A stretch of 39,202 nucleotides of DNA from an uncultured Gammaproteobacteria bacterium (lineage in GTDB: Bacteria > Patescibacteriota > Microgenomatia > Levybacterales > UBA12049). Under the pieces are notes generated by a model, which worked only from the letters and a program-made list of their open reading frames with translations, had not been told where the DNA came from and did no database searches. The position numbers were made by a program, and so were the translations under genes. The stretch lies in assembly GCA_964389405.1 (NCBI GenBank), contig CAYMDS010000001.1:1-39202 (forward strand), written 5' to 3'. Numbering within the stretch: the stretch's first letter is position 1; each line of letters begins with the position of its first letter. Below are positions 1-27,350 of this stretch, one piece after another.

Positions 1-3000
1 TTCTTATCCTTCTTATCTCATTATCACTAATAGTGTCAAGCCTTACGCCTTATGTAGGTACAGTCGGACCAGTTCAAGCAAATGAACCTACATTAAGTTC
101 TATTTCAGGCGCTTCAAAAAGTATAAAAGAAAATGGAGAAACAGATTCAAAAGCAAAAGATTTATTAGTAAACGCTTTATCTGAAGAAATCAAGACACCG
201 CGCATGATACAAAAGACATCAAAAGATAATAAGAGCGTGAAATTTATCTTCCATAAAGAACCAAGAGTCAGAATTATTAAAGACGGACAGGAGATCGAGT
301 TTGAAACGAAAGAGTTGGGTAATCGAAAAGTAAATCCTAAAGATTCAAAGATATTTAAAGATAAAGAAGTTACATATACAGAGGTTATTCCGGGAATTGA
401 TCTTAAATATAGTATAAACGACTCTGTATTAATTGAAGAGTTTATAGTAAAGAATAAAGATACCGCCAATATGTTAAAAGGCTATATCAGTCAAAAAGTT
501 CGAACAAGTGGCATTAATCTTGTTTCCAAAGATTCTGATGCTTTTGCTTTCTATACACAAGATAATAAAGAAATTTTCCAATTCTCAGCTCCATTCGCAA
601 AAGACGCAAAGGGAGATAAAACATTTGATATACAACTTACGATGAATGAGGAAATAGGTGGTTATGTGCTTAAAAAAACTTTAGGTGAGGCTTCGCGGAG
701 ATGGTTGATGGATCCTGAAAGATCATATCCTGTGATTATTGATCCGAGCGTAGTTGTTTCAGGAGGAATTACTGAGTCGGAAGCCCAGTATGGAAGTATG
801 CAAAGAAAATTGGCATCCTTTACACGTGTAGCGGGTAACAAAATAGATGATGCAGGTGATCCAGGAGGCATGAACGGTAGTTCTCCTCAGCTTGTAAGAA
901 CATCGACTGGAGTTTTGTATGCAGTAATAAATGATGGAGGAGATATCGAGATCTGGAAATCTACAGATGGGATTACTTGGTCTGAGCCTGCAAGCAATGG
1001 TCCTACCGATCTTGGCACATCTGCAGAAGTAGCAATAGCTATAGATTCTTCAAACGTTATCCATATTCTTTATGAGAATAATGATAATTCTCAAGATTTA
1101 AAATACATTACCTACGCCTCCGATGCTTTTAATGTAGGAGGTGCGGAGATTGCAATAAATCTTGGTGGGACAGGGAATAGTTTTAGGGGGATCGATATTG
1201 CTTTGGATAACCTGGGAAAGCCTCATGTTATCGGAATACAATTCGGTGGGTCAAATAGATTAAAATATGCAAATAAAACAGGAGCGAACTGGAGTTCTGA
1301 TGTCGACGCCCATCAAGGGGTCGGTATGCACATGGCAAGTATAGCTATAAATGAAGATTATATTCCCGAAATAGCCTTTATTGATACTACGAATGATGAT
1401 TTAATCGCTCTTGAGGGAAATGCAAATAACGCTACCGCCTTTACTGATACAAGTCCTGTAGTTGATAATTCTGTACATAATACAGCAGGTGTATATGGTA
1501 CAGATATAGCTGTAGACCTATCCGGAAATACTTGGATTTCTTATATCGATGCAACTACTCAGTATGTGACTTTGGCTAAACACAATGATTCAGATTCTTG
1601 GGGCACGTGGTCTACGACAAACAACACCAATGTAGGCAGCGAACCTAATATCGCAGTAGAGAATGGAAATGTATATGTAGGGTATGTTGATGAAAACGCT
1701 GATGTCGCATGGGATAGATATAACGGTAGCTGGCTAGGTGAGAAAGTGAGAAGGGCAGGTACTTTTCAGGACGTGAGGCTTAGATGGTCACATAATAGCC
1801 ATAGTTTTAGCACAAACTTTGACTATCTTTATTCTGATGGTACTGATATATATTGGGATTCTTTGTCGGATAATTTTTATGCCTTTTATAATGATGGGGG
1901 AGATGTATCATATAAAAAATCTACAGACGGTGGAGTGCAGTGGAATACCGCAGTGACAGTCGATGATGGTGATGCTGATAACTATAATCCAAGTATTTCG
2001 GTTTCGAATAATATTATTCATGTCTTTTGGGTTGATGATGGAGCGGAAAGAATCGAAGGCAGGCGCATCGATACCGGCTCTTCGGATGCACAAGGTACAC
2101 TTTGCCAGACTTCGGTGGATGGCACTTTGGGAAGTACCTTTATGGTTACTGTGGCTAAATTGTCAGATACTGCATCTATTATCGCTTATTCAGATACCAG
2201 CAGTGATAGTGAGGTAAATATATTTTCACTCGCTGGATTAGATGGTGCGTGTACCGGAAATTCAACTTCTATACTGACGGGTACAGTCACTTTTGGTACT
2301 CAGGGACCGGGGCTTACCGCTGGAGATCGTCCGCTTTTAATACCCCTCTCCTCAACAAGTGTAGGTATGATCTTTCAGGATGGCACCGATTTATCTTATG
2401 CGCAGTATTTCACAACCAATAACGAGTGGACTCGGAATAATCAGACTATAGCATCTGTAACGCATAACGTGTATTCCGCTGCGACGAATGGTACGACTAT
2501 CTGGCTTTTGGTTGCTGATACGACTCAAGCTGATGACGTATTTCTCTACACCTACCCCACAGCTAATACTGGAGCTATCGAATCCACCACTCTTGATGCT
2601 GATGTAGTGGGTTCTTCTTCAGATATGGAAGACAGTATACTAGATATGTATTGTGTAGCTGCGGATGATTGTAAAATTGTGTTTATTGACAATTTAGATA
2701 CAACCGCGCCTGATCTGATGTTTGTTGACTGCGACAATGCGACTTGCTCATCAAATACTATCAATAATATCGATAGTGATGTCGGAGATGCGTCTGTGGG
2801 GGGTAATCCTAAAATTTACTGCGTAGCCTCTGATAATTGTAAAATACTTTATGGCGACATGTCGGATGTAGCGCCGGATGCGGTGTTTGTGGATTGCTCT
2901 GTTGGTGATTGTGATAACGCTGGTACGCCTGGCACATGTGCATCGGGTGGAAGGACTTGTACTGTAATTGATACCGATTTAGGTGCTGCAGATTCAGAGT

Positions 3001-4181
3001 TCTATGGAGATATATTCTGTATTGCTGATGATAACTGTAAGCTGATTTATTTCAATACTGTCGACGAAACGAATGATGTATTATACTTTGTGGATTGTGC
3101 TAATGCTGTATGTTCTGGAGCTACACCTGGTAATATCGCGCAGGATTTTAATGGTGATACATCTTATGCCAATGTCCATATGTCTTTATACTGTGTATCT
3201 GATACAGATTGTAAGGCGTTGTATCATGATGCAGTAAATGGTGATTTAACCATGATTGATTGTTCGAATGCGGCATGCAGCGCACAGGATAGCGGCAGTC
3301 CATCTGATATTGATACTGGTGTGGGAGGAACAACAGTTAGCGCGCCTAATGATATCGATTGTAGTCCCGGATCCACAGACTGTAAGATAGTTTATATAGA
3401 TAGTTCTGAGAATGAGGTCAGTTTTGTGGATTGTCCGGATAGTGCTTGTACCTCCTCAGGTAGAACAATAACTAAGTTAGATGATACAGCTGGATCAAAT
3501 GTAGCTGATGTAGGTTTGGGGAATGAGATGGCCAGAATTGATTGTGTTTCTGCCACAGACTGTAAAGGCAGTTGGAGCGATGGTGCTACCTATAGTTACT
3601 TTTTTGATTGTGATAATGCTACATGTACTGCGGGTTCCGCAGAGCGATTGGTGACACCGGCATATGGTTCAGCTGTCGATTGCACAGGGGGAACATCTGA
3701 TTGTAAATTAGTATACTATGATGCCTATGTATCAGTTAATGATGGCCCGGTAACTTTTACTGACTGCACAAATGATAAATGCATACCCGACTGGACTGAT
3801 GCCTCAGATCCATGGACGGGGGAAAGCCAAATCGAATCAGTAACCATTACCTATGATTCGACGAACTCAGATATAGTAGCAAGTGCCATTATGGACTCTT
3901 CAGATCAGGCATATTTCAGAATAAGTGATGCAACCACCATTTCATGGGGAACAGAGTATTCATATAACTTAACAGCAGGGGATTTAGGACATCTGTCTTC
4001 GCCTGAATCCGCGGCGGGTTTTGGGGGAATGGGAATAGTATATAGACAGGGTAGTAATTTCGAGTTTGCCACTTTGCCTGAAAAAATATGGATATTTATT
4101 TTTATCACCCCTTTTTTCCCTATCTTTATTAAAGATATTAGAAAGCGTAAGATATCTAAGAAAATAAGCTGCATTCTTTAA
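1..4181 (+). CDS. Giant secreted/cell-surface protein (5' end off-window): Asp-box/beta-propeller-like N-terminal half, seven tandem 4-Cys repeats, C-terminal tripartite sorting signal
   Basis: The ORF track gives 33..4181, but the same frame is open from nt 3. It reads LILLISLSLIVSSLTPYVGTVGPVQA/NE, a signal-peptide h-region plus an AXA-like site, so the true start lies upstream of the window. Asp-box SxDxGxxW occurs at nt 960-980 (STDGITW) and 1920-1943 (STDGGVQW), with recurrent blade-like (I/V)x(I/V)xYxD segments. The C-terminus is ATLPEKIWIFIFITPFFPIFIKDIRKRKISKKISCIL. Confidence 0.85.
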   Translation, partial: LILLISLSLIVSSLTPYVGTVGPVQANEPTLSSISGASKSIKENGETDSKAKDLLVNALSEEIKTPRMIQKTSKDNKSVKFIFHKEPRVRIIKDGQEIEFETKELGNRKVNPKDSKIFKDKEVTYTEVIPGIDLKYSINDSVLIEEFIVKNKDTANMLKGYISQKVRTSGINLVSKDSDAFAFYTQDNKEIFQFSAPFAKDAKGDKTFDIQLTMNEEIGGYVLKKTLGEASRRWLMDPERSYPVIIDPSVVVSGGITESEAQYGSMQRKLASFTRVAGNKIDDAGDPGGMNGSSPQLVRTSTGVLYAVINDGGDIEIWKSTDGITWSEPASNGPTDLGTSAEVAIAIDSSNVIHILYENNDNSQDLKYITYASDAFNVGGAEIAINLGGTGNSFRGIDIALDNLGKPHVIGIQFGGSNRLKYANKTGANWSSDVDAHQGVGMHMASIAINEDYIPEIAFIDTTNDDLIALEGNANNATAFTDTSPVVDNSVHNTAGVYGTDIAVDLSGNTWISYIDATTQYVTLAKHNDSDSWGTWSTTNNTNVGSEPNIAVENGNVYVGYVDENADVAWDRYNGSWLGEKVRRAGTFQDVRLRWSHNSHSFSTNFDYLYSDGTDIYWDSLSDNFYAFYNDGGDVSYKKSTDGGVQWNTAVTVDDGDADNYNPSISVSNNIIHVFWVDDGAERIEGRRIDTGSSDAQGTLCQTSVDGTLGSTFMVTVAKLSDTASIIAYSDTSSDSEVNIFSLAGLDGACTGNSTSILTGTVTFGTQGPGLTAGDRPLLIPLSSTSVGMIFQDGTDLSYAQYFTTNNEWTRNNQTIASVTHNVYSAATNGTTIWLLVADTTQADDVFLYTYPTANTGAIESTTLDADVVGSSSDMEDSILDMYCVAADDCKIVFIDNLDTTAPDLMFVDCDNATCSSNTINNIDSDVGDASVGGNPKIYCVASDNCKILYGDMSDVAPDAVFVDCSVGDCDNAGTPGTCASGGRTCTVIDTDLGAADSEFYGDIFCIADDNCKLIYFNTVDETNDVLYFVDCANAVCSGATPGNIAQDFNGDTSYANVHMSLYCVSDTDCKALYHDAVNGDLTMIDCSNAACSAQDSGSPSDIDTGVGGTTVSAPNDIDCSPGSTDCKIVYIDSSENEVSFVDCPDSACTSSGRTITKLDDTAGSNVADVGLGNEMARIDCVSATDCKGSWSDGATYSYFFDCDNATCTAGSAERLVTPAYGSAVDCTGGTSDCKLVYYDAYVSVNDGPVTFTDCTNDKCIPDWTDASDPWTGESQIESVTITYDSTNSDIVASAIMDSSDQAYFRISDATTISWGTEYSYNLTAGDLGHLSSPESAAGFGGMGIVYRQGSNFEFATLPEKIWIFIFITPFFPIFIKDIRKRKISKKISCIL
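2652..3782 (+). repeat. Seven tandem protein-level repeats (~50-60 aa each) with four conserved Cys: C-x(4-6)-DCK-x2-(Y/F)...(F/M)-x-DC-x(3-4)-C
   Basis: Read from the translation: YCVAADDCKIVF..FVDCDNATC; YCVASDNCKILY..FVDCSVGDC; FCIADDNCKLIY..FVDCANAVC; YCVSDTDCKALY..MIDCSNAAC; DCSPGSTDCKIVY..FVDCPDSAC; DCVSATDCKGSW..FFDCDNATC; DCTGGTSDCKLVY..FTDCTNDKC. Confidence 0.85.
4074..4178 (+). other. C-terminal sorting-signal-like tail: LPEK motif, hydrophobic helix (IWIFIFITPFFPIFI), basic cluster (KDIRKRKISKK)
   Basis: These are the last 35 codons of the giant ORF. The tripartite layout matches PEP-CTERM/PGF-CTERM-type signals but the signature motif differs. An exosortase-family gene lies immediately downstream. 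Confidence 0.65.
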
Positions 4182-4206
4182 AGCAAATTATCTTAAGTCT
4201 CAACAT

Positions 4207-4824
4207 ATGGAAGACATAAAACAAATTAAAAATGTAAAAAGTACTCCGAAAAGACAGGCTGTAATTAACTTATTTATTATTCTCACTATCCTGCTTCTGG
4301 TTTTGCCTTTTTATAATACTATTTCTGATATCTTTACCAGAATAGTTATAAATTTTGATTGGTACCGACCGATAAAAGATTATATTGTGCCTGCGCAGGT
4401 CAGGATGGTTGCTGTAATTCTTATGCCTTTTGGCCTAAAGCCATCAATTATGGGTGAGTATCTCGCAATAGGTAGGGAAGATCCATATCTTATAGAAATA
4501 GCTTGGAATTGTATCGGATGGCAGTCAATGTTATTTTTTCTCATATCCGGATGGATAGTACTTCAAGGCAATGATTATACGACACTTAGTAGAATTAAGA
4601 CATGGATAGGGGGTTTTGTAGGTACTTTTTTACTCAATCTTTTAAGAATAAGCTCAATTGTTTTATTAGCTTACTTTTTTGGTCAAGACACAGCATCATT
4701 TTTCCATGATTATGGATCTACATTAGTAGTTATAGCCTGGTTAATTTTTTTCTGGTGGTTTTCTTATAAGTTTTTTCTTGAAGAAAAAGATTTTACTCTG
4801 GATAATTTTTTTGAGCGTAAGTAA
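4207..4824 (+). CDS. Exosortase/archaeosortase-family (EpsH-like) membrane protein, unusually small (205 aa)
   Basis: About 5-6 TM segments. AWNC(102)IGWQSM, LLNLLR(147)ISS and FFH(167)DYG reproduce the Cys / N-x-x-R / His pattern I associate with the family core. It starts 26 nt after the stop of the gene encoding the putative substrate. Confidence 0.7.
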   Translation: MEDIKQIKNVKSTPKRQAVINLFIILTILLLVLPFYNTISDIFTRIVINFDWYRPIKDYIVPAQVRMVAVILMPFGLKPSIMGEYLAIGREDPYLIEIAWNCIGWQSMLFFLISGWIVLQGNDYTTLSRIKTWIGGFVGTFLLNLLRISSIVLLAYFFGQDTASFFHDYGSTLVVIAWLIFFWWFSYKFFLEEKDFTLDNFFERK

Positions 4825-5012: not shown

Positions 5013-5480
5013 CTATGGTTCAAGTCGTGCTATATTTAACTCTGAAGCGTATGTTATGATCTGGGGATCTGTAGATACGATGACATATTGTAGTTTTGAG
5101 GCCATAGCCAGTAAAAGACTGTCAGTAAAGCTTATATGATTGGAGTTTTCATCATTTGTAGGATGTTGATATAGTGAAAAGGCAGTTTTCACGATTTGCT
5201 TATTTGGAGAATTTATGGTGCAGTTGGCAATAATTTGCCGCAAGTATGATGCTACGACGTCATGTAATTGTTTTTTTTCTGAAACTTGTAAAGAATATCG
5301 CGCAGGAATTACATGTGTGGTAAATAATTCGAATTCATTTAATATAAAATCCGGAATCACCCGCTTCATGAGCGGAATTTTTCTATAAACATACAGATAT
5401 TTTTTCGATATCTCATCCTCCTGATCGTTATATTTTTGTAACAATTCAGCCACCAATATACTTGTATCGATAATATACAT
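5013..5480 (-). CDS. PIN-domain toxin (VapC-like ribonuclease)
   Basis: MYIIDTSILV start with Asp5, then NEFE, FTDSLLL and VSTDPQ acidic positions typical of PIN domains. The ORF could start at 5498, but the Met at 5480 gives the canonical N-terminus and sits 1 nt after the antitoxin stop. Confidence 0.8.
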   Translation of the reverse strand: MYIIDTSILVAELLQKYNDQEDEISKKYLYVYRKIPLMKRVIPDFILNEFELFTTHVIPARYSLQVSEKKQLHDVVASYLRQIIANCTINSPNKQIVKTAFSLYQHPTNDENSNHISFTDSLLLAMASKLQYVIVSTDPQIITYASELNIARLEP

Positions 5481-5481
5481 A

Positions 5482-5757
5482 TTAAGACTTCTTCTCAACA
5501 GCTTGATTCGTGGAAGATAAGGCAGAATCTAGGTTGTTTGTGTTAATTTTTGTACCTTTAGGAAGCTTGATTCGTTTAGAAAGACGTTTGACTGATAAAT
5601 TAAATATTTTTAACGTGCTTTTCTCTTCCTCGTTCATTCTCTCTATGTATTCCTTTATGAGATCATCAATCACCTGTGATTTAGGTATTCCTAATTTTGC
5701 GGCCAATGCATGTAATTGTTGATATGTATTGTTAGTTATACTAATAGTTTTATACAT
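5482..5757 (-). CDS. Ribbon-helix-helix (CopG/VapB-like) antitoxin
   Basis: 91 aa. KTISITNNTYQQLHALAAKLGIPKSQVIDDLIKEYIERM fits a beta-strand plus two helices RHH. It lies directly upstream of, and is coupled to, the PIN gene. Confidence 0.7.
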   Translation of the reverse strand: MYKTISITNNTYQQLHALAAKLGIPKSQVIDDLIKEYIERMNEEEKSTLKIFNLSVKRLSKRIKLPKGTKINTNNLDSALSSTNQAVEKKS

Positions 5758-5875: not shown

Positions 5876-7702
5876 ATGTGGTTACCGCCTTTATTTATTT
5901 CAGTTATAAATTTATCGAATTTCTTTATAGATAAATTTCCGAATATAGACTGGTATCCTTTTTGGTATTTAGGTAATCCTTATAGATTTCTCACAGGTCC
6001 TGTTATACCTTTTGCGTTATATTTGTTTTCTTTAGTTTCAATTCCAGGTTATGTTGCTTATTGTCTGATTATAGCTTTAAGTCTAATTTTAGGTGGATTA
6101 GGGCTATTCTTCTATTTTAAATTTAACGGAGTAAGTAAATCCAATTCTTTTTTTCCTGCTTTGTGTTTTATTTTTATCCCAATAATGTATATAGTTCTTC
6201 CTTATCAAAATGGTCTTAAATATATAGCTATAGGTATATATCCACTGCTTTTTTTACTGTATCAGAAAAGTCTGATTTCACCTACTAAGCTTAAGGGGTT
6301 TATTTCTTCTTTTATAATTACTTTTATTCTTCTTATAAATAGTTCTTCCTTTTTACCTTTATTCATAGCGTTAATTGCTTTAGTCATTTCAGAAAAGGAT
6401 AAAGGTAGAGAAAAAAATGTTTTGGAACTGATTCTATTTATATCTCTTGCTATTTCATTATCTTTATTTTGGTATACACCTGAATATATCGGGATAATTT
6501 TAATGAATCCATCAATTGGCGGCTTGCCGCTTATTAAAGTATCAAGTAATTTATTTAATTTACTATTTCAGCTCTTGCCTATTATTTTTGCTTTATTGAT
6601 TTCTAAATTTAAATACTTGAAGCTTTCGGGCTTTAAATTTTTTTCTGTTACATTTTTCGCATCTTTAGTTTTTTTATCATTCATTCGATTTATCGCTGAT
6701 CCGGATTTTATCATGGACTGGACCGGGTTTTTTCCTGAGATTCAGTTGGCGCTAGCTATGGTTATCAGTAGCTTCAGTAAAGAGTTTAAGAAAAAAGGAT
6801 ATGTAATATTAGCTACAGTTTTTATTTTATTTTATGGATACATCGTTTTAACTGTTTACCACACTGACTTTAGTAATGGTTTTGAGAATAAATATAAAAC
6901 CAGAATAGAACAAACTCTCTCAAATAATGTGAAGCCTAATAATCGTATTTTTTTATCAGGTAATCCTGTTTTTTGGTTAAGCGATAGAGATGAAATCATG
7001 CAGGTTCGAGGAGGAAATGATCTGGGGAGTATTAATACTTGGTGGATGCATGGAGCATATCAAATACGTGAAGGCGATGATGCATCGCTTGCTGCAGTCT
7101 GGTTAAGAATATTTGGTGTATCTTATATACTAATAAATTCAAAAGATTCTGAAGAATATTTTAAAGATTTTAAAAACATCGAAAGATATAGAGATAGTAA
7201 GTATTTTAGCTTGCAATATTATGAAAAAGGCAACTTTCTGTATAAAGTAAAAAATTCAGCTCTTGTGCGTATTGCTGATGTTGGAATTTTAAGTACGCCC
7301 TCGCCTAGAGACGGCGCTGATGTTAGAAATTTATTAGCTTACGCTGGGAATTTTAAGCAGGAGATAGAATTCAGATCCAATAAGTCTAATCAAATTATAG
7401 TATCTGGAGAAATGAAAAAAGATGAGGTGATATCTTTAGCTGTTTCATTTGATAGAAACTGGAAAATCGAAAAAGGTGAAGGAAGAATACTTGGTGATGC
7501 GTTGGATAATATAGTTATAATGCCGGAAAAGCATGGAAAGCAGGAATTTATATTGAAATATAAAAGAGATTTTTTTGATTGGGCTATACCAATGATTTTT
7601 TCTATGATTATTATATTCATGATTTATCGCACTGAACGGATAATATTATTTATAAAAAGAATCATAAGCAAATTTTCTCTAGGTCTTCAGGATGATTACT
7701 AG
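5876..7702 (+). CDS. Large polytopic membrane protein, GT-C-fold-like glycosyltransferase candidate (YfhO/ArnT/PMT-type architecture)
   Basis: 608 aa: ~10+ TM helices, a ~250-aa extracytoplasmic domain and a final C-terminal TM helix. The C-terminal SFDRNWKIEKGEG..ILG..VIMPEKHGKQEFILKY pattern resembles that of the 1074-aa protein at 21621. Confidence 0.5.
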   Translation: MWLPPLFISVINLSNFFIDKFPNIDWYPFWYLGNPYRFLTGPVIPFALYLFSLVSIPGYVAYCLIIALSLILGGLGLFFYFKFNGVSKSNSFFPALCFIFIPIMYIVLPYQNGLKYIAIGIYPLLFLLYQKSLISPTKLKGFISSFIITFILLINSSSFLPLFIALIALVISEKDKGREKNVLELILFISLAISLSLFWYTPEYIGIILMNPSIGGLPLIKVSSNLFNLLFQLLPIIFALLISKFKYLKLSGFKFFSVTFFASLVFLSFIRFIADPDFIMDWTGFFPEIQLALAMVISSFSKEFKKKGYVILATVFILFYGYIVLTVYHTDFSNGFENKYKTRIEQTLSNNVKPNNRIFLSGNPVFWLSDRDEIMQVRGGNDLGSINTWWMHGAYQIREGDDASLAAVWLRIFGVSYILINSKDSEEYFKDFKNIERYRDSKYFSLQYYEKGNFLYKVKNSALVRIADVGILSTPSPRDGADVRNLLAYAGNFKQEIEFRSNKSNQIIVSGEMKKDEVISLAVSFDRNWKIEKGEGRILGDALDNIVIMPEKHGKQEFILKYKRDFFDWAIPMIFSMIIIFMIYRTERIILFIKRIISKFSLGLQDDY

Positions 7703-7785: not shown

Positions 7786-9135
7786 ATGGAAAATGAAAAA
7801 GTTAAAAGAGGTATAGATTTTTCAAATAGAGTTGGGGAAGGACAATCAGCAGCTTACCGCAAATCCTTATCTTGGTGGCGTGGTGGAAAACTTAATAAGC
7901 GTACATCTCTTTTTTTACTTTTGGTATTTAGTCTGAATTTTATAGGAGTGATACCTATTTTCCAAAGAGATGTTTCAGGGGCTTTTGAATCTTCTGCGGC
8001 GTTTATGCTAATCGCAGGGCTTTTAGAGAAATTTATATTCATTCCGACTAATATATTTTTTACAAGTATTACGATAATATCGCTTTCCATAGCACCTTTA
8101 TCTTTCTATCTATTTATAAGAAAGATCGCTTTGCGTCATGAATTGACTGCGTTAATTGCCACATTAATATATATATTTCCCAATCCATTTTTCGACTACA
8201 CCCCATCCCTTGGTGCAGCTATAATTTATGGTGATGGAGCGCATGCTGTAGTTTTTTCATTTCTCCCTTTATTTCTTCTGTACGTTGAATCATTTATAGC
8301 ATCAGGCATTCCTATTCTAGGAGTACTTACTATTATCGGAACAGCGATAATCGCTATTCTATCTCCGTTTATGATGTTTAATCTTATATTTATTTATCCA
8401 GTTTTGGCTGTGGCCGAAGGTTTTTTGGGTGATCTTAGGGTGAAAATGCTTAGGATGGTTTTTGTTTTTGTAGCGGCTTTTAGTCTTTCAATTTTTTGGT
8501 ATTTTCCTACATTTTTTTCACGTGGTATACAGTTATCGCATGTTGTCTATACTATTGACAAGAGCTTTCACCTTTTTCCTTTATTAATACCATTAGTTCC
8601 TCTCTTCGGCGCATTATTTTTTCTGGTTTTCGATAGAAGAAAAAGATTAAAACCTATTTTTATAGGCGCGTCTTTGCTGATTATTTATGTAATGTTTTTC
8701 ACTGCCAGTCGGGATATCATGATCGGGGGTGTATTTACTCCTGAGCGTTATAGGCTAGAGCTAAATTTCGCGTCCTCCATAACCTTATCATTACTTGTTA
8801 TTATTTTTACTGAAACATTTATGAGGGATGCTTTAAAGTATAGAAAGAACAAAGTATTTTTTGCATTTATACTGGTTCTCACTTTTGCCTCGGTTGCCAT
8901 ATTCGTTTTAATGGGTTTATTATCTGTTTATAGCTCATATCTTTTTATGAAGCTTGAGCCTACTCAAAGAAGTAGTGGTATAGGCATCGGCAATCTGGTG
9001 CGAATTTTTCGCTTTGATGATATTCCATCTCTGATTATGGATTTTATTTCTCTCGGAACTTTTATTTTTCTACTCTATATTCTTAAGGCTTATCCTTCAT
9101 TACATAAAAAAATTCCCAAAACATCTTCGGCTTGA
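7786..9135 (+). CDS. Polytopic integral membrane protein (about 11-12 TM helices); glycan polymerase/ligase or GT-C-like candidate
   Basis: 449 aa, almost entirely hydrophobic helices, sitting between a GT-C-like gene and a GT4 gene. No diagnostic motif recognised. Confidence 0.35.
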   Translation: MENEKVKRGIDFSNRVGEGQSAAYRKSLSWWRGGKLNKRTSLFLLLVFSLNFIGVIPIFQRDVSGAFESSAAFMLIAGLLEKFIFIPTNIFFTSITIISLSIAPLSFYLFIRKIALRHELTALIATLIYIFPNPFFDYTPSLGAAIIYGDGAHAVVFSFLPLFLLYVESFIASGIPILGVLTIIGTAIIAILSPFMMFNLIFIYPVLAVAEGFLGDLRVKMLRMVFVFVAAFSLSIFWYFPTFFSRGIQLSHVVYTIDKSFHLFPLLIPLVPLFGALFFLVFDRRKRLKPIFIGASLLIIYVMFFTASRDIMIGGVFTPERYRLELNFASSITLSLLVIIFTETFMRDALKYRKNKVFFAFILVLTFASVAIFVLMGLLSVYSSYLFMKLEPTQRSSGIGIGNLVRIFRFDDIPSLIMDFISLGTFIFLLYILKAYPSLHKKIPKTSSA

Positions 9136-9252: not shown

Positions 9253-10512
9253 ATGAGAAAGAAAAAGACTTTACATATCGCCCTTGTTCATTGTGGCTTC
9301 GCCTATTCCGGCGGCGGAGAGCGACTTATTATTGAGGAGGCCCGGGGTTTAGTGAAGAAAGGACACCATGTAGATGTTTTTGTTCCAACATGGAATAAAG
9401 CTTTATGCTACCCAGATGTTCTCAAAAAGATTACAGTTTACACGCTTTTTCCTTTTATTCCCTTGAACATTCCAATGAAGCACGCGTTGGAGCAAGTCTT
9501 CGCTGCATTATTAGTGCCTTTTTATTCATTCCGTTTTCTAAAATACGATATTTTGATAGGTGCTAATCAGCCCGGTGCCTGGATAGCATATTGTGTCTCT
9601 AAAATGCTTAGAAAGCCATATGTAGTTTACATGAACCAACCGAATAGACTTTTATACCCTCGGAAAATTGATATAAAGGAAAAATGGGCAAATATAAAAG
9701 ATTATGCATTTGTCCATTCTTTAATAGTTAAGCTGAAATTTTTCGTTAATATTGCAGATAAAGTATCATTTACAAGAGGGAGCTCGATTTTAGTGAATGG
9801 TGATTACATTGGGAGCATAATCCAAAGAATTTATAAGAAGGATTTCATAACATGTCCGGCTGGCGCTTACCCCCAGGATTTTTCCCTTCTTCGTGTAAAC
9901 CCTCATACAGCTTATGTTGGTAAGTTTAGCTTTCGGAATAAAGACGGCATGAAATTTGATATAGAAAAGCCATATGTACTCATAACGAACAGACATCAGC
10001 CCCAAAAACGATTTGACTATGGAATTAAGGCATTTAATATATTCAGAAAAAGATATCCTGATATGAAGCTTATTATTCCTGGTCCGTTTACGGATGAAAC
10101 TAATAAATTGAAAAAAATCGTCAATAGATTAAAGCTTAATAATTATGTACTTTTTGTCGGACAGATATCTGAGAAAGATTTACAGAAGCTTTATCGTGAA
10201 TCAGTTCTTTATATTTATACAGCACCCGAAGAGGATTACGGGATGGGAATTGTTGAGGCGATGGGATGGGGAGTGCCTGTGGTCGCTTGGAATCATGCTG
10301 GACCGACAGTTACTATAAAAGATGGATTAACAGGCTATTTGGCAAAGCCATATGACATAACAGATTTTGCTGAGAAAATGCATGAGGCTATTAAAATAAT
10401 GCCTGAGAGAGCCGAGATGGGAAAGCGTGCCTGGAACCATGTGCGAGATAATTTTTCTTGGGATAGTCACATAAATATCCTGGAGCGATCTCTGTACCAA
10501 GCCCTAGCCTAA
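9253..10512 (+). CDS. Glycosyltransferase, GT-B fold, family 4-like
   Basis: N-terminal SGGGERLIIEE and a C-terminal E-x7-E motif (PEEDYGMGIVEAMGWGVPVVAWNHAGP). Paralog of 24848..26191. Confidence 0.85.
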   Translation: MRKKKTLHIALVHCGFAYSGGGERLIIEEARGLVKKGHHVDVFVPTWNKALCYPDVLKKITVYTLFPFIPLNIPMKHALEQVFAALLVPFYSFRFLKYDILIGANQPGAWIAYCVSKMLRKPYVVYMNQPNRLLYPRKIDIKEKWANIKDYAFVHSLIVKLKFFVNIADKVSFTRGSSILVNGDYIGSIIQRIYKKDFITCPAGAYPQDFSLLRVNPHTAYVGKFSFRNKDGMKFDIEKPYVLITNRHQPQKRFDYGIKAFNIFRKRYPDMKLIIPGPFTDETNKLKKIVNRLKLNNYVLFVGQISEKDLQKLYRESVLYIYTAPEEDYGMGIVEAMGWGVPVVAWNHAGPTVTIKDGLTGYLAKPYDITDFAEKMHEAIKIMPERAEMGKRAWNHVRDNFSWDSHINILERSLYQALA

Positions 10513-10579
10513 TACAGAAAAGTAATAATAGATAAATTATTTTGATATAAAACTCTAGAATACATTTTAATTTTTAGTG

Positions 10580-10601
10580 ACCAGTATACATGTATACTGG
10601 T
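10580..10601. promoter_or_regulatory. 22-bp perfect palindrome ACCAGTATACATGTATACTGGT, 7 nt upstream of the TrpR-like gene start; candidate operator
   Basis: Read directly from the sequence. It shares the 16-bp core AGTATACATGTATACT with the palindrome at 11034-11059. Confidence 0.6.
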
Positions 10602-10608
10602 TATATAT

Positions 10609-11040
10609 ATGCCTAGAGCATCGAAAAGAAAAATTAGATCAGAGCTCCTGGAAGAAATGCGTGACAACTTCGCATTCCTAATTTCGTCTTTAACTATTTC
10701 ATCTGATATCCAAAGTTTTTTTACAGTTTTTTTGACAGAAGAAGAAAAAATTATGCTTACCAAACGGTTGATGATTCATCTGATGCTTAAAAGCGGTTAT
10801 GAGATTTCTGAAATATGTGCTACTGTCGGTGTGAGTCGGGAAACAATCAGGACACATAAATCAGTTTGGATTACGAGTGATGAAAAATATAAAAAACTTA
10901 TAGCGAAATTAGCACAAAGAAAAAAGACTAAAGAGTTCTGGAAGAAAGTGGAAAAAGCTTTAAAGCCGTTAGAGTATGCTCTAACAGCGAAAACCAATAT
11001 GAAATCCCGCGCGAAACTATTTGATTACTCCTCTGACTAG
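10609..11040 (+). CDS. TrpR/YerC-YecD family helix-turn-helix regulator
   Basis: 143 aa. LTEEEKIMLTKRLMIHLMLKSGYEISEICATVGVSRETI matches the Trp-repressor-like fold pattern (helices plus an HTH ending in SxxTI). Confidence 0.7.
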   Translation: MPRASKRKIRSELLEEMRDNFAFLISSLTISSDIQSFFTVFLTEEEKIMLTKRLMIHLMLKSGYEISEICATVGVSRETIRTHKSVWITSDEKYKKLIAKLAQRKKTKEFWKKVEKALKPLEYALTAKTNMKSRAKLFDYSSD

Positions 11041-11059
11041 TATACATGTATACTAGTCA
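11034..11059. promoter_or_regulatory. 26-bp perfect palindrome TGACTAGTATACATGTATACTAGTCA overlapping the stop codon of the TrpR-like gene; second operator-like site
   Basis: Read directly from the sequence. It contains two ACTAGT hexamers and has the same 16-bp core as the upstream palindrome. No U-run follows it, so a simple terminator is unlikely. Confidence 0.55.
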
Positions 11060-11119
11060 TCCGATGCAAAAAGATTAATTATAGGTAAGAATTTGTTTTG
11101 TTGCTGAGTAATCATTTAA

Positions 11120-11941
11120 TCAGTTACTTAAAACTTGTCTTACGGTCTCATTTAATCTGTCGGCTGCTTCGGTGGTTGCAGCGCTTGGGTAGTTGGCCAT
11201 TATCCATAAAGGTTTATTTGTTTCCCGTCTAGCCTTAAGCACTCTGTTCAGATCATAAATTAACTGATCCTCAGTCCATCCGGCTTTAACATATAAACCA
11301 TGTGTATTAGGTAGTAATGGATTAATATCTACTCCAGAAGTTGCGGCGTATTCAGTATCTCTTACGTCAGGCCCGCTTACAAATACGAATCCTCTTTCTC
11401 CGGGTTTTTCTTCAATCCAGCGTTCTATTTTTTCACCCTTTCCGACTAGAGCATGATTTTCAGCCAGTAATACCGCACCTGTAGATTCCAGTTCTCTTTG
11501 AAATTTCTCGCTCAATCTTTTCCTCCAGCCTCCATTATGTCTTTTTAATACCGGCCAGTGCCAGCTGATAGTAGCATCGGTTTCAGCGACTAGTATTCCT
11601 GTTGCTTTTCGCCAGAAGGGCATCGAAACCGCCAGACTCTGCGGCCAACGCATTAAGTAATTTACAAAAGAATCATTGGCGGCTGGTTTAGGTGAGACAA
11701 TTCTATCTATCATCCAGGGTGGATGGATATTAACAACATAATCCTCTAAAAGATGATCAGAATTTGCTCGTGGTTTACTTAATAATTCAAAAACTGTACC
11801 TGGACTTGGTATTGGTTCATAGGCATTATAACCCATGGATGTGGCGCCAATTATACCTTTTGTTAATGGATCATAAAGCTTTCTTTGTCCTGAAGCGATA
11901 TAGGCTGCTTCTGATAATCCTACTCTAACAATTTCTGCCAT
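11120..11941 (-). CDS. Hypothetical protein (273 aa), no recognisable motif; visibly GC-richer than its neighbours
   Basis: Long ORF with non-repetitive, globular-looking composition (W/P/G-rich). Opposite strand to the flanking glycan genes. Confidence 0.6.
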   Translation of the reverse strand: MAEIVRVGLSEAAYIASGQRKLYDPLTKGIIGATSMGYNAYEPIPSPGTVFELLSKPRANSDHLLEDYVVNIHPPWMIDRIVSPKPAANDSFVNYLMRWPQSLAVSMPFWRKATGILVAETDATISWHWPVLKRHNGGWRKRLSEKFQRELESTGAVLLAENHALVGKGEKIERWIEEKPGERGFVFVSGPDVRDTEYAATSGVDINPLLPNTHGLYVKAGWTEDQLIYDLNRVLKARRETNKPLWIMANYPSAATTEAADRLNETVRQVLSN

Positions 11942-11992
11942 GTTTTATTTTAATTATTCTGTAGCGGATTATTACACAGTTGCAGCCAGGAA

Positions 11993-12598
11993 TCAATATT
12001 CCTCAATTGCCTCGGGGGTTTGGATGGTGAGCTGTCGTGAGCAGGAGTCGTAGTTGCCGGTGGCGTAAACTGCCTTGTCTTTAAACGGAGTAAATGAAGC
12101 ATCGCGTCCGCGATTGAGGTGGATTGTAGTATTATCAGATAATTCGAGAATGTAGCGGTATCTCGGACTGGTATTGTCATCTGGTGAAAGAAAATTGCTG
12201 AAGTATTTAATTATTCTTTGAATTTTTGCAACTACATGATCCGGTTCTGTATCGGTTACTTTAAGAACTTTTACTACTCCTTTATGTGTTTGTACTCCTT
12301 TATCACATAGAGCATGGGTCGTTCCGAAAAAACCGAGAAACGAAAGAGCCAGTGCTACACCCATAATACCAATGGACCCCTTAAGAGTAAATGAAAAAGC
12401 TTTTTGTTTTTTAATTTCTTCAAGAAGTTCTGTAATTCTACGTAGAGGATTACCGATGTGGACATTTATAAGTGTATCGTCATCAGATGTTTCTGAAACC
12501 TTTGTTTTATTTAGGACAGCAGATGTTACGGGATCTTTTTTCACAACTGTTTCGACTTGTGGTGCAGCATTTGATGGAAGCTTAGTAGACTCATCCAT
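11993..12598 (-). CDS. Hypothetical single-pass membrane protein (201 aa)
   Basis: Polar N-terminal region, one TM helix (IGIMGVALALSFLGFFGT) and a ~100-aa C-terminal domain. Lies 51 nt upstream of, and co-oriented with, 11120..11941. Confidence 0.55.
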   Translation of the reverse strand: MDESTKLPSNAAPQVETVVKKDPVTSAVLNKTKVSETSDDDTLINVHIGNPLRRITELLEEIKKQKAFSFTLKGSIGIMGVALALSFLGFFGTTHALCDKGVQTHKGVVKVLKVTDTEPDHVVAKIQRIIKYFSNFLSPDDNTSPRYRYILELSDNTTIHLNRGRDASFTPFKDKAVYATGNYDSCSRQLTIQTPEAIEEY

Positions 12599-12685
12599 AA
12601 ATAAAGATTACGAAAGGAGCATATAAAATGCAATAAGCAAGTTTCCTGAATTTATTGGAGGTGATATACTAGAGTACGTATTGAT

Positions 12686-14344
12686 ATGAGTGAACCTGCA
12701 AAACATCAGTCTGAAAATCATCTTAATGACTGGATGAAAAAAATACATGATGCGTCTTTTAAACACCAGGCTCCTTTAGAAATTGATGAAAAGAGTAAAG
12801 AAGGTAAAGAAAGCTTAAGAAATGTATCGGCCATTAAATCATATGATCATATAATAATAGGATTTTTCCTCCTCTTGGGCCTTTTATATCGTCTGGTAGT
12901 TATTTTCTTTATAACAGGCACAGAGAATGCAGGTGTAGGGTGGTATGGAGATACTTATCATCATTGGCAAATAGCGTATCTGACTAAGACGACAGGGTTT
13001 TCTCATGGCTTTCTTCGTTTATGGGATCTGAAAGGAATGGAGTATTTTTGGGGACTTTTACATCCGCTTTTGATGAATTTTTTATTTTTAATTACCGGTA
13101 GTACGAATATTATTCTTAGTAGAATGCTGAGTACGGGATTTGGTTTAGCGTCTGTCTATATGTTATTTCTTCTTGGAATGAGGTATTTTGGCAGAAGAGT
13201 AGCCTATGCAATTGCTTTTTTTAGTGCTTTTTTTTCGATTGCAGTTTTTAATGACGCGTCCGGAATGCTTGAGCCGATAGGTTTATTTTTTATGTTACTA
13301 GGTATCTATACATGGCCCAGGTTGCCATTTATGACTGCAATTTCTTTTGTGCTGGCATCTATGGTGCGCGCGGAAATGTGGGTTTTCAGTATTGGTTTAC
13401 TTTTCGGAATTTTAATAAAGCCTGGAAATACACACCGAAAAACTATAGTTATATTATTATGGTCAATTTTCATGGTTCTTTACATGAAATATTTTTTGGA
13501 TCATACAGGAAACGCTATCTATCCGATATATTGGAACTTCCTGGCGAATGCACTTGGGGAGTGGGCTGGAGATGATCCTTTAACCTCCCTTCAGCTTACG
13601 GTACGACCTATCCTGATGGTAATAGGAGCAATAAGTGCGGTAATGCTTGGTTTTATTATTTATAAGCGCCCAAAAAACATACTGCTTCTTCTTCTAGGAT
13701 TTGGCAATATTTTTTTCGTGACCAGCTTTATGGGTTTTGGACACTATATTCATGGTTGGGAGTGGTGGTTTCCGGTAATTCGTTTTTTTGTATTTCCGTA
13801 TATGTTCGCTGCCTTAATGCTATTTGCATTGATTAATAAATTAAGGATAGGCAGTCAGGCTATGGTAAGTGTTTTGGTGATGCTTGCGGTAGGGGTTTTG
13901 ACCGTTACTACACAATTGGCCTGGGTGCCAATTCTTCAAAGATTTAAAGAGACACGTCCAGAGTGGGAGCGAAGCATAAGCTGGGGACGGGAAGTTGGAA
14001 AATACTATAAAGAAGGTACTCTTCTTTTTCCCGACGGTGATCCGCATTTTACTTATACTTCTGTGCAGTATGGGCATGTTGAAGGGCAAAATATACTGAG
14101 TCAAATGTTTGACCCTTTTTATTATATAGATGAAGATCAAGTATTTGGGCAGTGGAGTAAGTACAAGAAAGCAATTAATAATGACTGGATTAAAAAACAC
14201 GATATACGCTTAGCTGTTTTTCGGACCGACACTGAAAGATATATAAGACTTATAGAAAAAGAGCCTGAAATTTTTGAAAAGGTTTCAACATTGGAAGGAG
14301 GGGTATATGAAATATGGCGAATTTATCCGGAAAAGATAAGATAA
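12686..14344 (+). CDS. Polytopic membrane protein, GT-C-fold-like glycosyltransferase candidate
   Basis: 552 aa: ~12 TM helices followed by a ~140-aa soluble C-terminal domain. An early loop reads GWYGDTYHHWQIAY. First gene of a + strand operon with overlapping downstream genes. Confidence 0.45.
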   Translation: MSEPAKHQSENHLNDWMKKIHDASFKHQAPLEIDEKSKEGKESLRNVSAIKSYDHIIIGFFLLLGLLYRLVVIFFITGTENAGVGWYGDTYHHWQIAYLTKTTGFSHGFLRLWDLKGMEYFWGLLHPLLMNFLFLITGSTNIILSRMLSTGFGLASVYMLFLLGMRYFGRRVAYAIAFFSAFFSIAVFNDASGMLEPIGLFFMLLGIYTWPRLPFMTAISFVLASMVRAEMWVFSIGLLFGILIKPGNTHRKTIVILLWSIFMVLYMKYFLDHTGNAIYPIYWNFLANALGEWAGDDPLTSLQLTVRPILMVIGAISAVMLGFIIYKRPKNILLLLLGFGNIFFVTSFMGFGHYIHGWEWWFPVIRFFVFPYMFAALMLFALINKLRIGSQAMVSVLVMLAVGVLTVTTQLAWVPILQRFKETRPEWERSISWGREVGKYYKEGTLLFPDGDPHFTYTSVQYGHVEGQNILSQMFDPFYYIDEDQVFGQWSKYKKAINNDWIKKHDIRLAVFRTDTERYIRLIEKEPEIFEKVSTLEGGVYEIWRIYPEKIR

Positions 14345-15144
14345 AAGACTTTGATTATGAAAAAAAAGTTTGGGGTTCAGGAATTGTGCATCCTTCACCT
14401 TTCTATATTCAAGGATTAAAGCTTAAGTATACGCTTGAAGCCTTAAAAGATGTAAAAGGGAAAATTTTAGATATCGGATGTGGTGGTGGTAATATCGCAA
14501 AGGCCATTAAGAAATACAGGCCGGATCTAGATATTTACGGTATTGATATTTCAAAAAAAGCAATAGATGAAGCTCTTAAAGATCCGATGAGGGTAAGTTT
14601 TTCTGTAGGTACATGTGAGAAAATACCTTTTAAAGATAATGCATTTGATGCATTAGTTATGTACGATGTCTTGGAGCATGTGGAAAAACCTGAAATCGCT
14701 TTACGGGAGATGAAGAGAGTCGTTAAGAAAAATGGAAAGATTCATATATTCTCTCCTCTGGATGGTCAGCCGTGGACTCTTTATTCTTTTATATATAAGC
14801 TGGGGTGGCAGCCTAAAAATACTCATACAGGACATCTGCATGTTTTCTCAAGTAATTCCTTTGAAGAACTTCTTAATAAAAACCGTTTTCATGTCATAAG
14901 TAAGAAATATTCATTTCATTATTTTTTCTCTCTATTTGATATAGCATATTTTAGCCTTCTTGAAATTATGAAATATAATCCTGATAGTTCAATTGAGGGT
15001 ATGATTGAATCCAGAAAGAAAAGTATACCGGCTAAGCTATTTAATATACTGTATCGTATAGTTATAGCTAGCGGGTATTATGAGTCTCAAGTGTTATCAA
15101 GTATTCCTGGCGGCGGCGGACATTTTACTGTTAAACCAATATGA
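14314..15144 (+). CDS. Class I SAM-dependent methyltransferase
   Basis: Motif I ILDIGCGGGNIA, then the acidic loop DIYGIDIS and DALVMYDVLEHV. Overlaps the upstream gene by 31 nt. Confidence 0.85.
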   Translation: MANLSGKDKIKDFDYEKKVWGSGIVHPSPFYIQGLKLKYTLEALKDVKGKILDIGCGGGNIAKAIKKYRPDLDIYGIDISKKAIDEALKDPMRVSFSVGTCEKIPFKDNAFDALVMYDVLEHVEKPEIALREMKRVVKKNGKIHIFSPLDGQPWTLYSFIYKLGWQPKNTHTGHLHVFSSNSFEELLNKNRFHVISKKYSFHYFFSLFDIAYFSLLEIMKYNPDSSIEGMIESRKKSIPAKLFNILYRIVIASGYYESQVLSSIPGGGGHFTVKPI

Positions 15145-16160: not shown

Positions 16161-16168
16161 TTTTACTT

Positions 16169-16921
16169 CTACATAACCATCTCAATAGGGGAATCAGCTA
16201 GTTGACCGTTTTTCGCATAAGTTACTAATCTATTAAGTTCTCCTTCGATAAGGTCATGACTTCCTTTTCTTCCGCGAACGCTATATGCCCAGATCTTAAT
16301 GGGTTTTTTCCCTACTTGCAAACGATCTTCGTGATGTAGCTTAAGGTAATAAGGGATTCTTGCAAATTGCTGAGGTGATGAGACAACAGCCAAATTTGTT
16401 ATTCCATGTAATGGGCTTTCTGGATTATCGATTTGTTGAAAAAGGCTTGTGAATTGATGGCCTGTATGTACAATATTTACTACTCCTTCAGGTGTTAGAA
16501 CATTATCTATGACTAGTATATTCTCTGAAGGCATGTTGGTAAATCGCGAATTCGCTACTCGGCGAAAATCAGCGTTTTCGTCAGGTGTACCATTATAAAC
16601 TAAAAGTGGTCCACATTCTCTAATCATAGCATCATCTATGCTTAACGGCCGTTCTCCTGTAAGTTTTTCAATTCTTGATCTAGTTATCTCACGAACTACA
16701 GCTGCGGCAGCCCGAATTCTGTCGCGGCCTTGGTAATGGCCTGCGTGAGGCTCTTTCTCGCTTTTAAGTGGTTTATTATAGAGTCCATACCCGCTCACAC
16801 ATAGTACTGCTTGAATATCCGGCGGGTATATTCTTTTTCTTTCGGTTGCTACCCTTTCGAGATCATCAACAATAGATAATGCTGAAAGACGTAATTTCGC
16901 AGGATCAAACTCTTTAGTCAT
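16169..16921 (-). CDS. Hypothetical protein (250 aa); weak resemblance to DUF218/YdcF-type proteins
   Basis: VLCVSGYG..., YNGTPDENADF and LAVVSSPQQFAR loosely follow the DUF218 pattern (G-rich start, T-x-E-N-A, Ser-Ser..R). Visibly GC-richer than its neighbours. Last gene of a minus-strand operon. Confidence 0.3.
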   Translation of the reverse strand: MTKEFDPAKLRLSALSIVDDLERVATERKRIYPPDIQAVLCVSGYGLYNKPLKSEKEPHAGHYQGRDRIRAAAAVVREITRSRIEKLTGERPLSIDDAMIRECGPLLVYNGTPDENADFRRVANSRFTNMPSENILVIDNVLTPEGVVNIVHTGHQFTSLFQQIDNPESPLHGITNLAVVSSPQQFARIPYYLKLHHEDRLQVGKKPIKIWAYSVRGRKGSHDLIEGELNRLVTYAKNGQLADSPIEMVM

Positions 16922-16976
16922 GCTGGAGATTTTAAGAGAGTATAGTATAATTTGTCAAATTATTGTAATTAATACT

Positions 16977-19292: not shown

Positions 19293-19344
19293 CTATCATT
19301 GATTTTTCAATAATTATATACTACAGTTATTAAATTCGGAAATT

Positions 19345-24845: not shown

Positions 24846-24847
24846 TT

Positions 24848-27348: not shown

Positions 27349-27350
27349 GC

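Follow-up and report, generated by a model that had tools for sequence, protein, structure and literature searches.

A small exosortase/archaeosortase-family protein and the tail of its giant neighbour form a probable C-terminal processing module in a Microgenomates-like bacterium

We analysed a stretch of DNA, hereafter called the window, which is the entire 39202-nt contig CAYMDS010000001.1 of assembly GCA_964389405.1. At its left end the window carries the 3′ fragment of a giant gene whose product ends in a sorting-type tail and, 25 nt downstream on the same strand, a gene for a 205-amino-acid (aa) protein of the exosortase/archaeosortase family. We consider it likely that both belong to a dedicated exosortase-type C-terminal processing module of a Microgenomates-like bacterium of the candidate phyla radiation (CPR), with the steps proposed further below. 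No terminator-like site was found in the 25-nt spacer (26 nt in the original prediction, which had been made from the sequence alone), and co-transcription of the giant gene and the enzyme gene is plausible. The two genes have the following features.

1..4181, + strand: 3′ part of the giant tail-bearing gene, 1392 codons in a frame that is open from base 3 on, with the stop codon at 4179-4181
3..44, + strand: hydrophobic segment LILLISLSLIVSSL, aligned with internal hydrophobic segments of orthologs
2640..3782, + strand: seven tandem repeats of ~55 aa with four Cys each, in the predicted ectodomain (aa 880-1260 of the fragment)
4056..4085, + strand: signature motif N-F-E-F-A-T-L-P-E-K, with the conserved core L-P-E at 4074-4082
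4086..4130, + strand: predicted hydrophobic helix of the tail, IWIFIFITPFFPIFI, which contains Pro residues and abuts the motif directly, with no spacer
4131..4181, + strand: basic cluster KDIRKRKISKKISCIL and stop codon
4207..4824, + strand: 205-aa exosortase/archaeosortase-family enzyme, above the cut-offs of TIGR04178 and PF09721
4510-4512, 4645-4647 and 4705-4707, + strand: enzyme codons for C102, R147 and H167, respectively

The 205-aa protein scored 46 bits against TIGR04178 (cut-off 23; E 4.9e-12), with residues 96-185 corresponding to positions 1-91 of the 97 in the model, and 36.6 bits against PF09721 (Exosortase_EpsH; gathering score 25.7). Because both curated cut-offs were exceeded, it is, judged by these matches, a member of the exosortase/archaeosortase superfamily, as had been proposed. 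It belongs to no named subfamily, since it failed every Xrt, Art and cyanoexosortase subfamily model of NCBIfam; the best scores were those against ArtC (23.4 bits vs a cut-off of 100), ArtF (22.7 vs 150) and XrtX (21.3 vs 170), followed by XrtG (18 vs 102.75), XrtM (14.5 vs 125), XrtV (14.2 vs 313) and CrtC (13.7 vs 225). The superfamily pattern of a Cys, an Arg in the context N-x-x-R and a His is present in the strings AWNC(102)IGWQS, LLNLLR(147)I and FFH(167)DYG. C102, N144, R147 and H167 were invariant among 41 aligned homologs (44-85% identity), which upholds the earlier choice of C102, R147 and H167 as the key residues. Cys, Arg and His make up the proposed triad of the exosortase/archaeosortase family (Haft 2023 preprint), and mutagenesis of ArtA supports the predicted active-site residues (review PMC6098224).

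A word-indexed search retrieved 195 homologs of the enzyme, mostly 180-220 aa long and most of them with a precomputed PF09721 match, which are annotated just as ‘exosortase/archaeosortase family protein’ or ‘hypothetical’. Their hosts include Woese-, Chisholm-, Curtiss- and Spechtbacteria and other Patescibacteria. In an exhaustive profile search, 521 cluster representatives passed a threshold of E <= 1e-3 and 194 passed E <= 1e-10, and a tblastn search of plasmids with the enzyme gave no match. The enzyme had been called miniature; with 205 aa it is indeed small, but its size is not without precedent, as NCBIfam holds exosortase-family models of 187 (XrtG), 168 (XrtX), 166 (ArtF) and 150 positions (XrtM). 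An AlphaFold2 (AF2) model of the enzyme, with a mean predicted local distance difference test (pLDDT) score of 84.4, was polytopic, with long helices at residues 14-31, 33-49, 53-75, 105-118, 126-158 and 160-190, and the hydrophobic segments likewise agreed with a polytopic protein.

The giant open reading frame (ORF) is truncated on its 5′ side by the contig end. Its start was placed by the ORF listing at a GTG codon at base 33; the reading frame itself, however, is open from base 3 and, since the window is the entire contig, the 1392 codons are a 3′ fragment and not the complete ORF as which they had been presented. Contigs also end inside the giant gene in several of the closest relatives (loci L010, L099, L100 and L013), which suggests that this gene is hard to assemble, perhaps through repeats or strain variation. 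The C-terminus of the fragment, ...YRQGSNFEFATLPEK-IWIFIFITPFFPIFI-KDIRKRKISKKISCIL, ending at 4181, has the architecture that the original prediction described, namely NFEFATLPEK, then the 15-residue hydrophobic stretch IWIFIFITPFFPIFI and then the basic cluster KDIRKRKISKKISCIL. Just ahead of the tail, a module of ~130 aa is conserved among the orthologs, and so is the N-terminal module of the ectodomain, which matched DUF7948 weakly. Almost every Cys of the fragment sits inside the seven ~55-aa repeats, whose pattern is C-x5-C ... [FM]xDC-x4-C, and sialidase/BNR-like ‘S/T-D-G-x-x-W’ strings were spotted by eye. No second tail-bearing ORF was found within the 39-kb window.

Across 57 distinct tails, the residue before P-E was V in 28, I in 17 and L in 9, and the residue after it was N in 19, K in 13, R in 7, Y in 5, A in 5 and S in 4; Pro was not among these six commonest residues, so the tails lack the P-E-P signature. 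The tail helix is short, with Pro at +11 in 29/57 and at +14 in 36/57, and K/R prevail from about +18. A tripartite layout was found at the extreme C-terminus, in which the motif abuts the helix and a basic cluster follows. Motifs that abut the helix without a spacer are typical of signals cut by deeply membrane-embedded enzymes (Haft 2023 preprint). The commonest dipeptide ahead of a C-terminal helix and basic cluster was PE (49 cases), followed by VP (26 cases, overlapping V-P-E). The string N[FY]EF[AG]x[LVI]PE was invariant in 11 orthologous tails, and four tail subtypes could be told apart, N[FY]EFAx[LVI]PE, DWxVSVPEN, S-L-Q-I-P-E-N and P-x-I-I-V-P-E-[AF]. BLAST found no similarity between the ectodomain of the window protein and those of the other tail subtypes; P-E, helix and basic tail are nonetheless kept. 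A claim that the tail sits on wholly unrelated passengers was weakened, as the ectodomains differ but a glycosyltransferase family 2 (GT2) domain is common to the N-termini. Two altered tails, FEFAPLPDF (L021 2..4597) and FEFATVDER (L013 3..3551), are otherwise intact, and the L021 enzyme gene lies 5.4 kb from the altered-tail gene.

Searched at E up to 10, the window tail matched none of the NCBIfam sorting-signal models, PEP-CTERM TIGR02595 included. Of 10 related tails, one exceeded the PEP-CTERM cut-off by a narrow margin (16.6 vs 16 bits), and a second showed a weak likeness to PEP-CTERM protein C-termini. The tails do not have the properties of LPXTG signals either, as they show no T-G, a minority of Leu before P-E and no spacer between motif and helix. 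Judged by these alignments, the signal is best written as [V/I/L]-P-E-x, a degenerate PEP-CTERM-like motif of which ‘LPEK’ is one instance. The original prediction had stated that T-L-P-E-K matches no named class; this agrees with the lack of a model match for the window tail, but K is not conserved and LPEK does not form a distinct class.

Conservation of the gene pair was analysed in loci drawn from GTDB contigs with one genome per species, in which enzyme genes were detected with the family hidden Markov model. A tail counted as strict if the final 75 residues contained P-E, then 12-26 uncharged hydrophobic residues and then three or more K/R in 10; a relaxed detector used together with the enzyme tree was noisy, and the subtype assignments rest on the strict detector. 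Upstream DNA of 1.5 kb or more was available for 77 enzyme genes; of these, 41 have a same-strand ORF with a strict tail within 1 kb upstream and 49 have one within 3 kb. Considering ORFs of at least 300 aa in the 80+ related loci, 45 of 87 were tailed within 3 kb upstream of the enzyme gene compared to 4 of 278 elsewhere (45/42 vs 4/274; Fisher odds ratio 73, p = 1.5e-28), a statistic that is conditional on the presence of the enzyme, through which the loci were found. In the reverse direction, a scan of GTDB genomes for N[FY]EFA[TVP][VLI]PE gave 13 loci, with the enzyme downstream in 11, on another contig of the same metagenome-assembled genome (MAG) in one, and a contig too short in the last, in line with the co-occurrence of tail-bearing proteins and enzyme that had been anticipated. 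Some of the enzyme genes without a strict tail have distant partners or relaxed tails, the latter in L061, L082 and L074 (P-E kept), L021 (P-D) and L013 (D-E). Enzyme clades track tail subtypes. In many MAGs there are two or more enzyme genes, and as a rule every one of these has a separate partner upstream. The proposed one-enzyme/one-substrate module was borne out as a conserved adjacent pair (49/77, odds ratio 73), of which many genomes carry more than one.

The relatives are CPR/Microgenomates MAGs, in agreement with the CPR-like host that the original prediction had assumed, and the locus also occurs in MAGs labelled Chloroflexi and Dormiibacterota. MAGs with the CPR-type locus (L001/L010, L011, L014 and others) are often titled ‘uncultured Gammaproteobacteria’ or ‘Bathyarchaeia’, labels which probably are too general or erroneous. 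Several loci of the window clade have a gene for a protein of ~260-330 aa, absent from the window, that lies between the giant gene and the enzyme gene (L015 9116..9982; L023 8272..9042; L025 3574..4422; L030 8910..9911; L091 8401..9198), and the C-terminus of its product is conserved (...IFINGxLK...IGPIxDLxxS).

Single-chain proteins that contain both tail and enzyme were found among the cluster representatives of the exhaustive profile search. P0262 (946 aa) and P0283 (1227 aa) consist of a GT2, an ectodomain, ‘FPIEVPEN’ with a helix and a basic linker, and the exosortase domain. In P0232 (458 aa) the exosortase domain comes first and is followed by one extra helix, an ectodomain and the C-terminal ‘GIIVPETILPMIFVAPFVPILSVWIKRKK’ tail, of the type ‘GIIVPE...KRKK’. 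Since these Rosetta-stone fusions occur in both orders, tail and enzyme are functionally tied. The final helix that leads into the ectodomain of P0262 is itself preceded by a K/R-rich stretch, which is consistent with an N-in/C-out anchor and an ectodomain on the outside. The fusion architectures further indicate that the enzyme would be N-in/C-in and, combined with the AF2 helices, that C102, R147 and H167 would lie towards the outer leaflet. P0254 has ‘VVSE’ where VPE would be expected, and in several proteins of 430-475 aa the enzyme domain is N-terminal. Loci L081 and L084 were noted along with these proteins.

Upstream of the ectodomain, the orthologs have one or two helix-turn-helix (HTH) domains and a synthase-type GT2 (Pfam domains Glycos_transf_2, Glyco_tranf_2_3 and Glyco_trans_2_3). 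A 1872-aa ortholog, which is an independently called gene adjoining a 61%-identical enzyme, showed HTH_28 and GT2 Pfam matches and the C-terminus NFEFSTLPENLWVMLL...; it is 45% identical to the window ectodomain, and its aa 831 aligns with window aa 5. Given this alignment and the HTH-GT2 part of the orthologs, the window gene most likely lacks an HTH-GT2 N-terminus of ~800 codons, cut off by the contig end. A synthase-type GT2 was present in 20/25 tail ORFs with a complete 5′ end, and the remaining five comprised one false positive and four genes that are split, the GT2 ORF lying directly ahead of the tail ORF. The GT2 part of the relatives carries D-x-D and QxxRW motifs flanked by hydrophobic helices, and the nearest NCBIfam families, all below cut-off, were PgaC/IcaA, CelA, NodC and ‘XrtP-associated glycosyltransferase’. 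When a processive GT2 synthase was defined, on the N-termini of the relatives only, by GT2 Pfam domains, D-x-D/QxxRW and flanking membrane helices, it was recognised in L015, L026, L024, L030, L012, L091 and L101.

The hydrophobic segment LILLISLSLIVSSL at the start of the window aligned with segments at aa 758 (L026), aa 155 (L013) and aa 972 (L024) of the orthologs; by this alignment it is the last predicted membrane helix before the ectodomain, of the signal-anchor type. A cleavable signal peptide at the first window residues was considered and dropped, since the ortholog counterparts are internal segments. The S-layer/ArtA-like logic that the original prediction had suggested for the substrate therefore applies in part, the complete relatives being an ectodomain behind HTH and processive GT2 and not a simple secreted glycoprotein. 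The HTH domains, one or two at the N-terminus of the giant genes of L015, L024, L030, L012, L091 and L101, are of transposase type (HTH_28, HTH_23 and HTH_Tnp_1), which is odd for a membrane glycosyltransferase; the window itself encodes a free 143-aa Trp-repressor/HTH protein within its sugar island (10609..11040).

Downstream of the enzyme gene the window contains the following features.

5013..5757, − strand: inserted two-gene cassette that separates the enzyme gene from the GT-C gene and does not belong to the module
5013..5498, − strand: PIN-domain protein (weak match, E 0.0011)
5482..5757, − strand: small overlapping ORF, putative antitoxin by size, overlap and sequence
5876..7702, + strand: 608-aa polytopic glycosyltransferase with a predicted GT-C fold, PF10131/PTPS_related-like (AF2 and Foldseek)
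7786..9135, + strand: 449-aa polytopic membrane protein with ~12 predicted hydrophobic segments, which recurs in related loci
9253..26191, strand unassigned: glycan-biosynthesis island (context)
12686..14344, + strand: 552-aa membrane protein, which recurs in 9 related loci (10 matches)
26864..39139, − strand: ordinary chromosomal genes, with IF-2 (487 aa only) recognised by Pfam

Homologs of the 608-aa protein, which carry PF10131, were found in more than 40 loci, often directly after the enzyme gene. Its AF2 model (pLDDT 84.7) was matched by Foldseek to AftD (7e-7), STT3, PglB, AglB, DPY19, AftA and ArnT with a probability of 1.0 and TM-scores of 0.27-0.45. According to this model, the protein has a GT-C fold, with a polytopic N-terminal module and a soluble extracytoplasmic domain. 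Its homologs gave no credible match in NCBIfam, and an exact-sequence look-up of the 608-aa product returned no record. The 608-, 449-, 552-, 273- and 201-aa neighbours had no NCBIfam match and no Pfam match above cut-off, the 449-aa protein giving a sub-threshold holin match in Pfam, and sequence searches of the PDB with the 608-, 552- and 449-aa proteins were negative. In the Chloroflexi-labelled L081 and L084, the 552-aa homolog comes directly after the enzyme ORF and overlaps it.

The island at 9253..26191 combines two family 4 glycosyltransferases and one GT2 with sugar dehydratase/epimerases, a formyltransferase and a PIG-L deacetylase; it further encodes C- and other methyltransferases as well as a PF10131-like membrane protein of 1074 aa (21621..24845). 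The glycosylation island reported next to the module was thus recovered. The small ORF of the inserted cassette is probably an antitoxin and the cassette a toxin-antitoxin pair; the PIN gene recurs in L001/L010, the locus with the closest synteny. For the other ORFs in 26864..39139, inspection by eye suggests ribosomal-protein (L7/L12-type) and transcription-factor genes. L101 carries a classical sortase gene (PF04203; 11841..12407) and a LytR_C protein gene no more than 2 kb downstream of its small exosortase gene, and the two sorting systems therefore coexist there.

We propose that these genes act as follows. The giant membrane protein would run, from N to C, through one or more cytoplasmic HTH domains, the processive GT2 synthase with its membrane helices, a final N-in/C-out helix and a huge ectodomain outside the cell, composed of Cys repeats and propeller-like parts. 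At its far end would come [V/I/L]-P-E, a short Pro-containing helix in the membrane and a basic cluster in the cytoplasm. The 205-aa enzyme would recognise P-E at the outer face, where the motif abuts the tail helix, and would cleave there through a Cys-acyl intermediate at Cys102, a chemistry that is modelled on ArtA and on the exosortase model by homology. The new C-terminus would be either released or passed to an acceptor, for which a lipid, a wall component and a glycan are candidates. The GT-C glycosyltransferase or glycosyltransferases and the sugar island would most likely glycosylate the ectodomain or supply the acceptor.

A wider interpretation, which we put forward tentatively as a possibility, is that of a widespread and so far undescribed cell-surface machine of CPR bacteria, and of MAGs labelled Chloroflexi or Dormiibacterota, in which synthase, ectodomain and exosortase-type signal are one polypeptide, sometimes with the enzyme fused to it, and in which the freed C-terminus would be joined to the polymer made by its own GT2 or to a lipid or wall acceptor. 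If true, this would be a cis-coupled synthase-adhesin-sortase system, mechanistically unlike the sorting of secreted proteins by PEP-CTERM or ArtA systems.

Several observations weigh against C-terminal processing by the enzyme. The synthase part keeps the protein anchored in the membrane, which makes the benefit of losing the tail helix puzzling. A strict adjacent tail is absent for 28/77 enzyme genes, the enrichment near the enzyme has the conditional nature given above, and P-E is replaced in two orthologous tails, by LPD in L021 and by VDE in L013. As to the enzyme, the placing of C102, R147 and H167 on the catalytic columns is indirect, through their invariance and the collinear match to the signature model. 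A six-pass, N-in/C-in topology with the triad near the outer leaflet is likewise predicted from AF2 secondary structure, charge distribution and fusion architectures. Searched as a profile against PDB sequences, the family alignment gave no match at E up to 10, and Foldseek gave no match to the AF2 model of the enzyme at E < 0.5.

The main rival to cleavage is a complex-forming role without cleavage, in which the small protein, as a structural or regulatory subunit of the synthase, would provide a dock for the tail helix or have the glycan or lipid product as its target, with the tail as a permanent second anchor. This would suit a substrate which is already anchored via its GT2 membrane domain and a locus for polysaccharide synthesis and glycosylation, and a stable complex would accommodate the single-chain proteins that join tail and enzyme as well. 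The older ‘EpsH’ annotation, taken from exopolysaccharide loci, implied action on a glycan or lipid product too. On the other hand, the invariant Cys, Arg and His in 41 homologs argue for catalysis, and a short Pro-rich helix with an abutting P-E and a basic cluster is the canonical layout of a cleaved signal. As of a 2018 review, cleavage by bacterial exosortases had not yet been analysed experimentally, but the family member ArtA is proteolytic (PMC6098224). A non-cleaving subunit is, in our judgement, unlikely.

We regard as quite improbable that the adjacency reflects a shared surface-glycan operon only, with the true substrates of the enzyme unlinked and the giant tail an ordinary C-terminal anchor. 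Such an arrangement could account for the 28 of 77 enzyme genes that have no strict tail neighbour, and our tail counts come from the enzyme loci. However, within these loci the ORFs with the tail pattern are nearly all located upstream of the enzyme (45 near vs 4 elsewhere), the enzyme clade tracks the tail subtype, fusions join tail and enzyme in both orders, and the tail of the giant gene is the sole one found in the 39-kb window. It is very improbable that the module is an ordinary PEP-CTERM/XrtA or ArtA/PGF-CTERM system overlooked by the models: despite the related tail at 16.6 vs 16 bits and the other with a weak match to PEP-CTERM protein C-termini, every named subfamily model scored far below its cut-off, the window tail had no match, the third motif position is not Pro, and there is about one substrate per enzyme, with GT2 fusions, instead of many Sec-secreted paralogs. 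That ‘LPEK’ is a variant LPXTG signal for a classical sortase is scarcely credible, as the likeness in L-P-x is superficial, Leu is in the minority before P-E (V 28, I 17, L 9), T-G and a motif-helix spacer are missing, and the conserved neighbour is an exosortase-family gene and not a sortase gene, even if in one related genome the enzyme gene is followed, ~1.2 kb farther downstream, by a sortase gene (PF04203).

The proposed processing module resembles several known systems. The PEP-CTERM/exosortase system of Gram-negative bacteria (XrtA, EpsH) belongs to the same superfamily (PF09721, TIGR04178), has a P-E core that abuts a short helix followed by a basic cluster, and is likewise tied to polysaccharide or glycosylation loci. 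It differs in its P-E-P motif, in place of [V/I/L]-P-E-x, in its subfamily models, all of which the 205-aa window enzyme fails, and in its one-to-many relation of enzyme and substrates, compared to about one adjacent substrate per enzyme within the loci studied here. Moreover, the relatives of the window locus come from CPR bacteria, presumed monoderm, and their substrate is fused to a GT2 synthase, whereas PEP-CTERM substrates are Sec-secreted. ArtA/PGF-CTERM, which acts on the S-layer glycoprotein of Haloferax volcanii, shares the superfamily, the proposed Cys/Arg/His triad, large glycosylated surface proteins and a single-membrane cell, and the best, if weak, subfamily matches of the window enzyme are to archaeosortases, ArtC and ArtF. 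In contrast, its signal is PGF and not [V/I/L]PE, it has several unlinked substrates, lipid anchoring has been shown for ArtA but a lipid is one of several candidate acceptors here, and the substrate described here is tethered by its N-terminal synthase domain.

XrtG, XrtX, ArtF and XrtM are comparable in their small size, but the window enzyme scored 14.5-22.7 bits against cut-offs of 103-170, and we know of no cognate tail or substrate fusion for any of the four. XrtG, a Gram-positive form with a GT2 and a PF10131-like membrane protein as neighbours, would come closest in gene content. The GT2 and GT-C proteins of our loci gave no match to XrtG-associated models. The GT2 of the relatives is a synthase of the same type (D-x-D, QxxRW) as the XrtP-associated glycosyltransferase (NCBIfam NF053846), PgaC/IcaA, CelA and NodC. 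An exosortase-associated GT2 is thus already a curated family in NF053846, the relatives scoring far below the equivalog cut-offs, and unlike all of these the GT2 described here is fused to HTH, a giant ectodomain and a sorting-type tail. A target encoded beside its own enzyme, detected by conserved neighbourhood, has been described for JDVT-CTERM and its myxosortase-like protease (Haft 2023 preprint), in which, however, the enzyme is CPBP/Rce1-like and unrelated to exosortases and the signal differs.

One-to-one pairs of enzyme and target, exosortase-associated GT2s and small exosortases are, therefore, already known. The enzyme clade and its [V/I/L]PE signal appear to be undescribed in the curated libraries and the searchable literature, as do the systematic pairing of this clade with HTH-GT2-ectodomain fusion proteins and with GT-C proteins in CPR, Chloroflexi- and Dormiibacterota-labelled MAGs and the single-chain enzyme-substrate fusions. 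The literature searched contained no paper joining exosortases or archaeosortases with Patescibacteria, candidate phyla radiation, Saccharibacteria, Parcubacteria or Microgenomates, and nothing relevant on XrtG, ArtF, XrtX or XrtM.

A lifestyle attached to other cells is generally assumed for CPR bacteria. To our knowledge, little has been established about how they build and anchor their surface structures, and the majority of their large surface proteins carry no annotation. The module offers a testable handle on this question, with a small enzyme, three candidate catalytic residues, a defined tail and GT2-fusion and GT-C partners. For annotation, it argues for a new enzyme subfamily model and a new tail model, and the enzyme-substrate fusions could serve as minimal systems for exosortase chemistry in vitro. 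The module would extend exosortase biology to presumed single-membrane bacteria and to a membrane-embedded synthase as the substrate.

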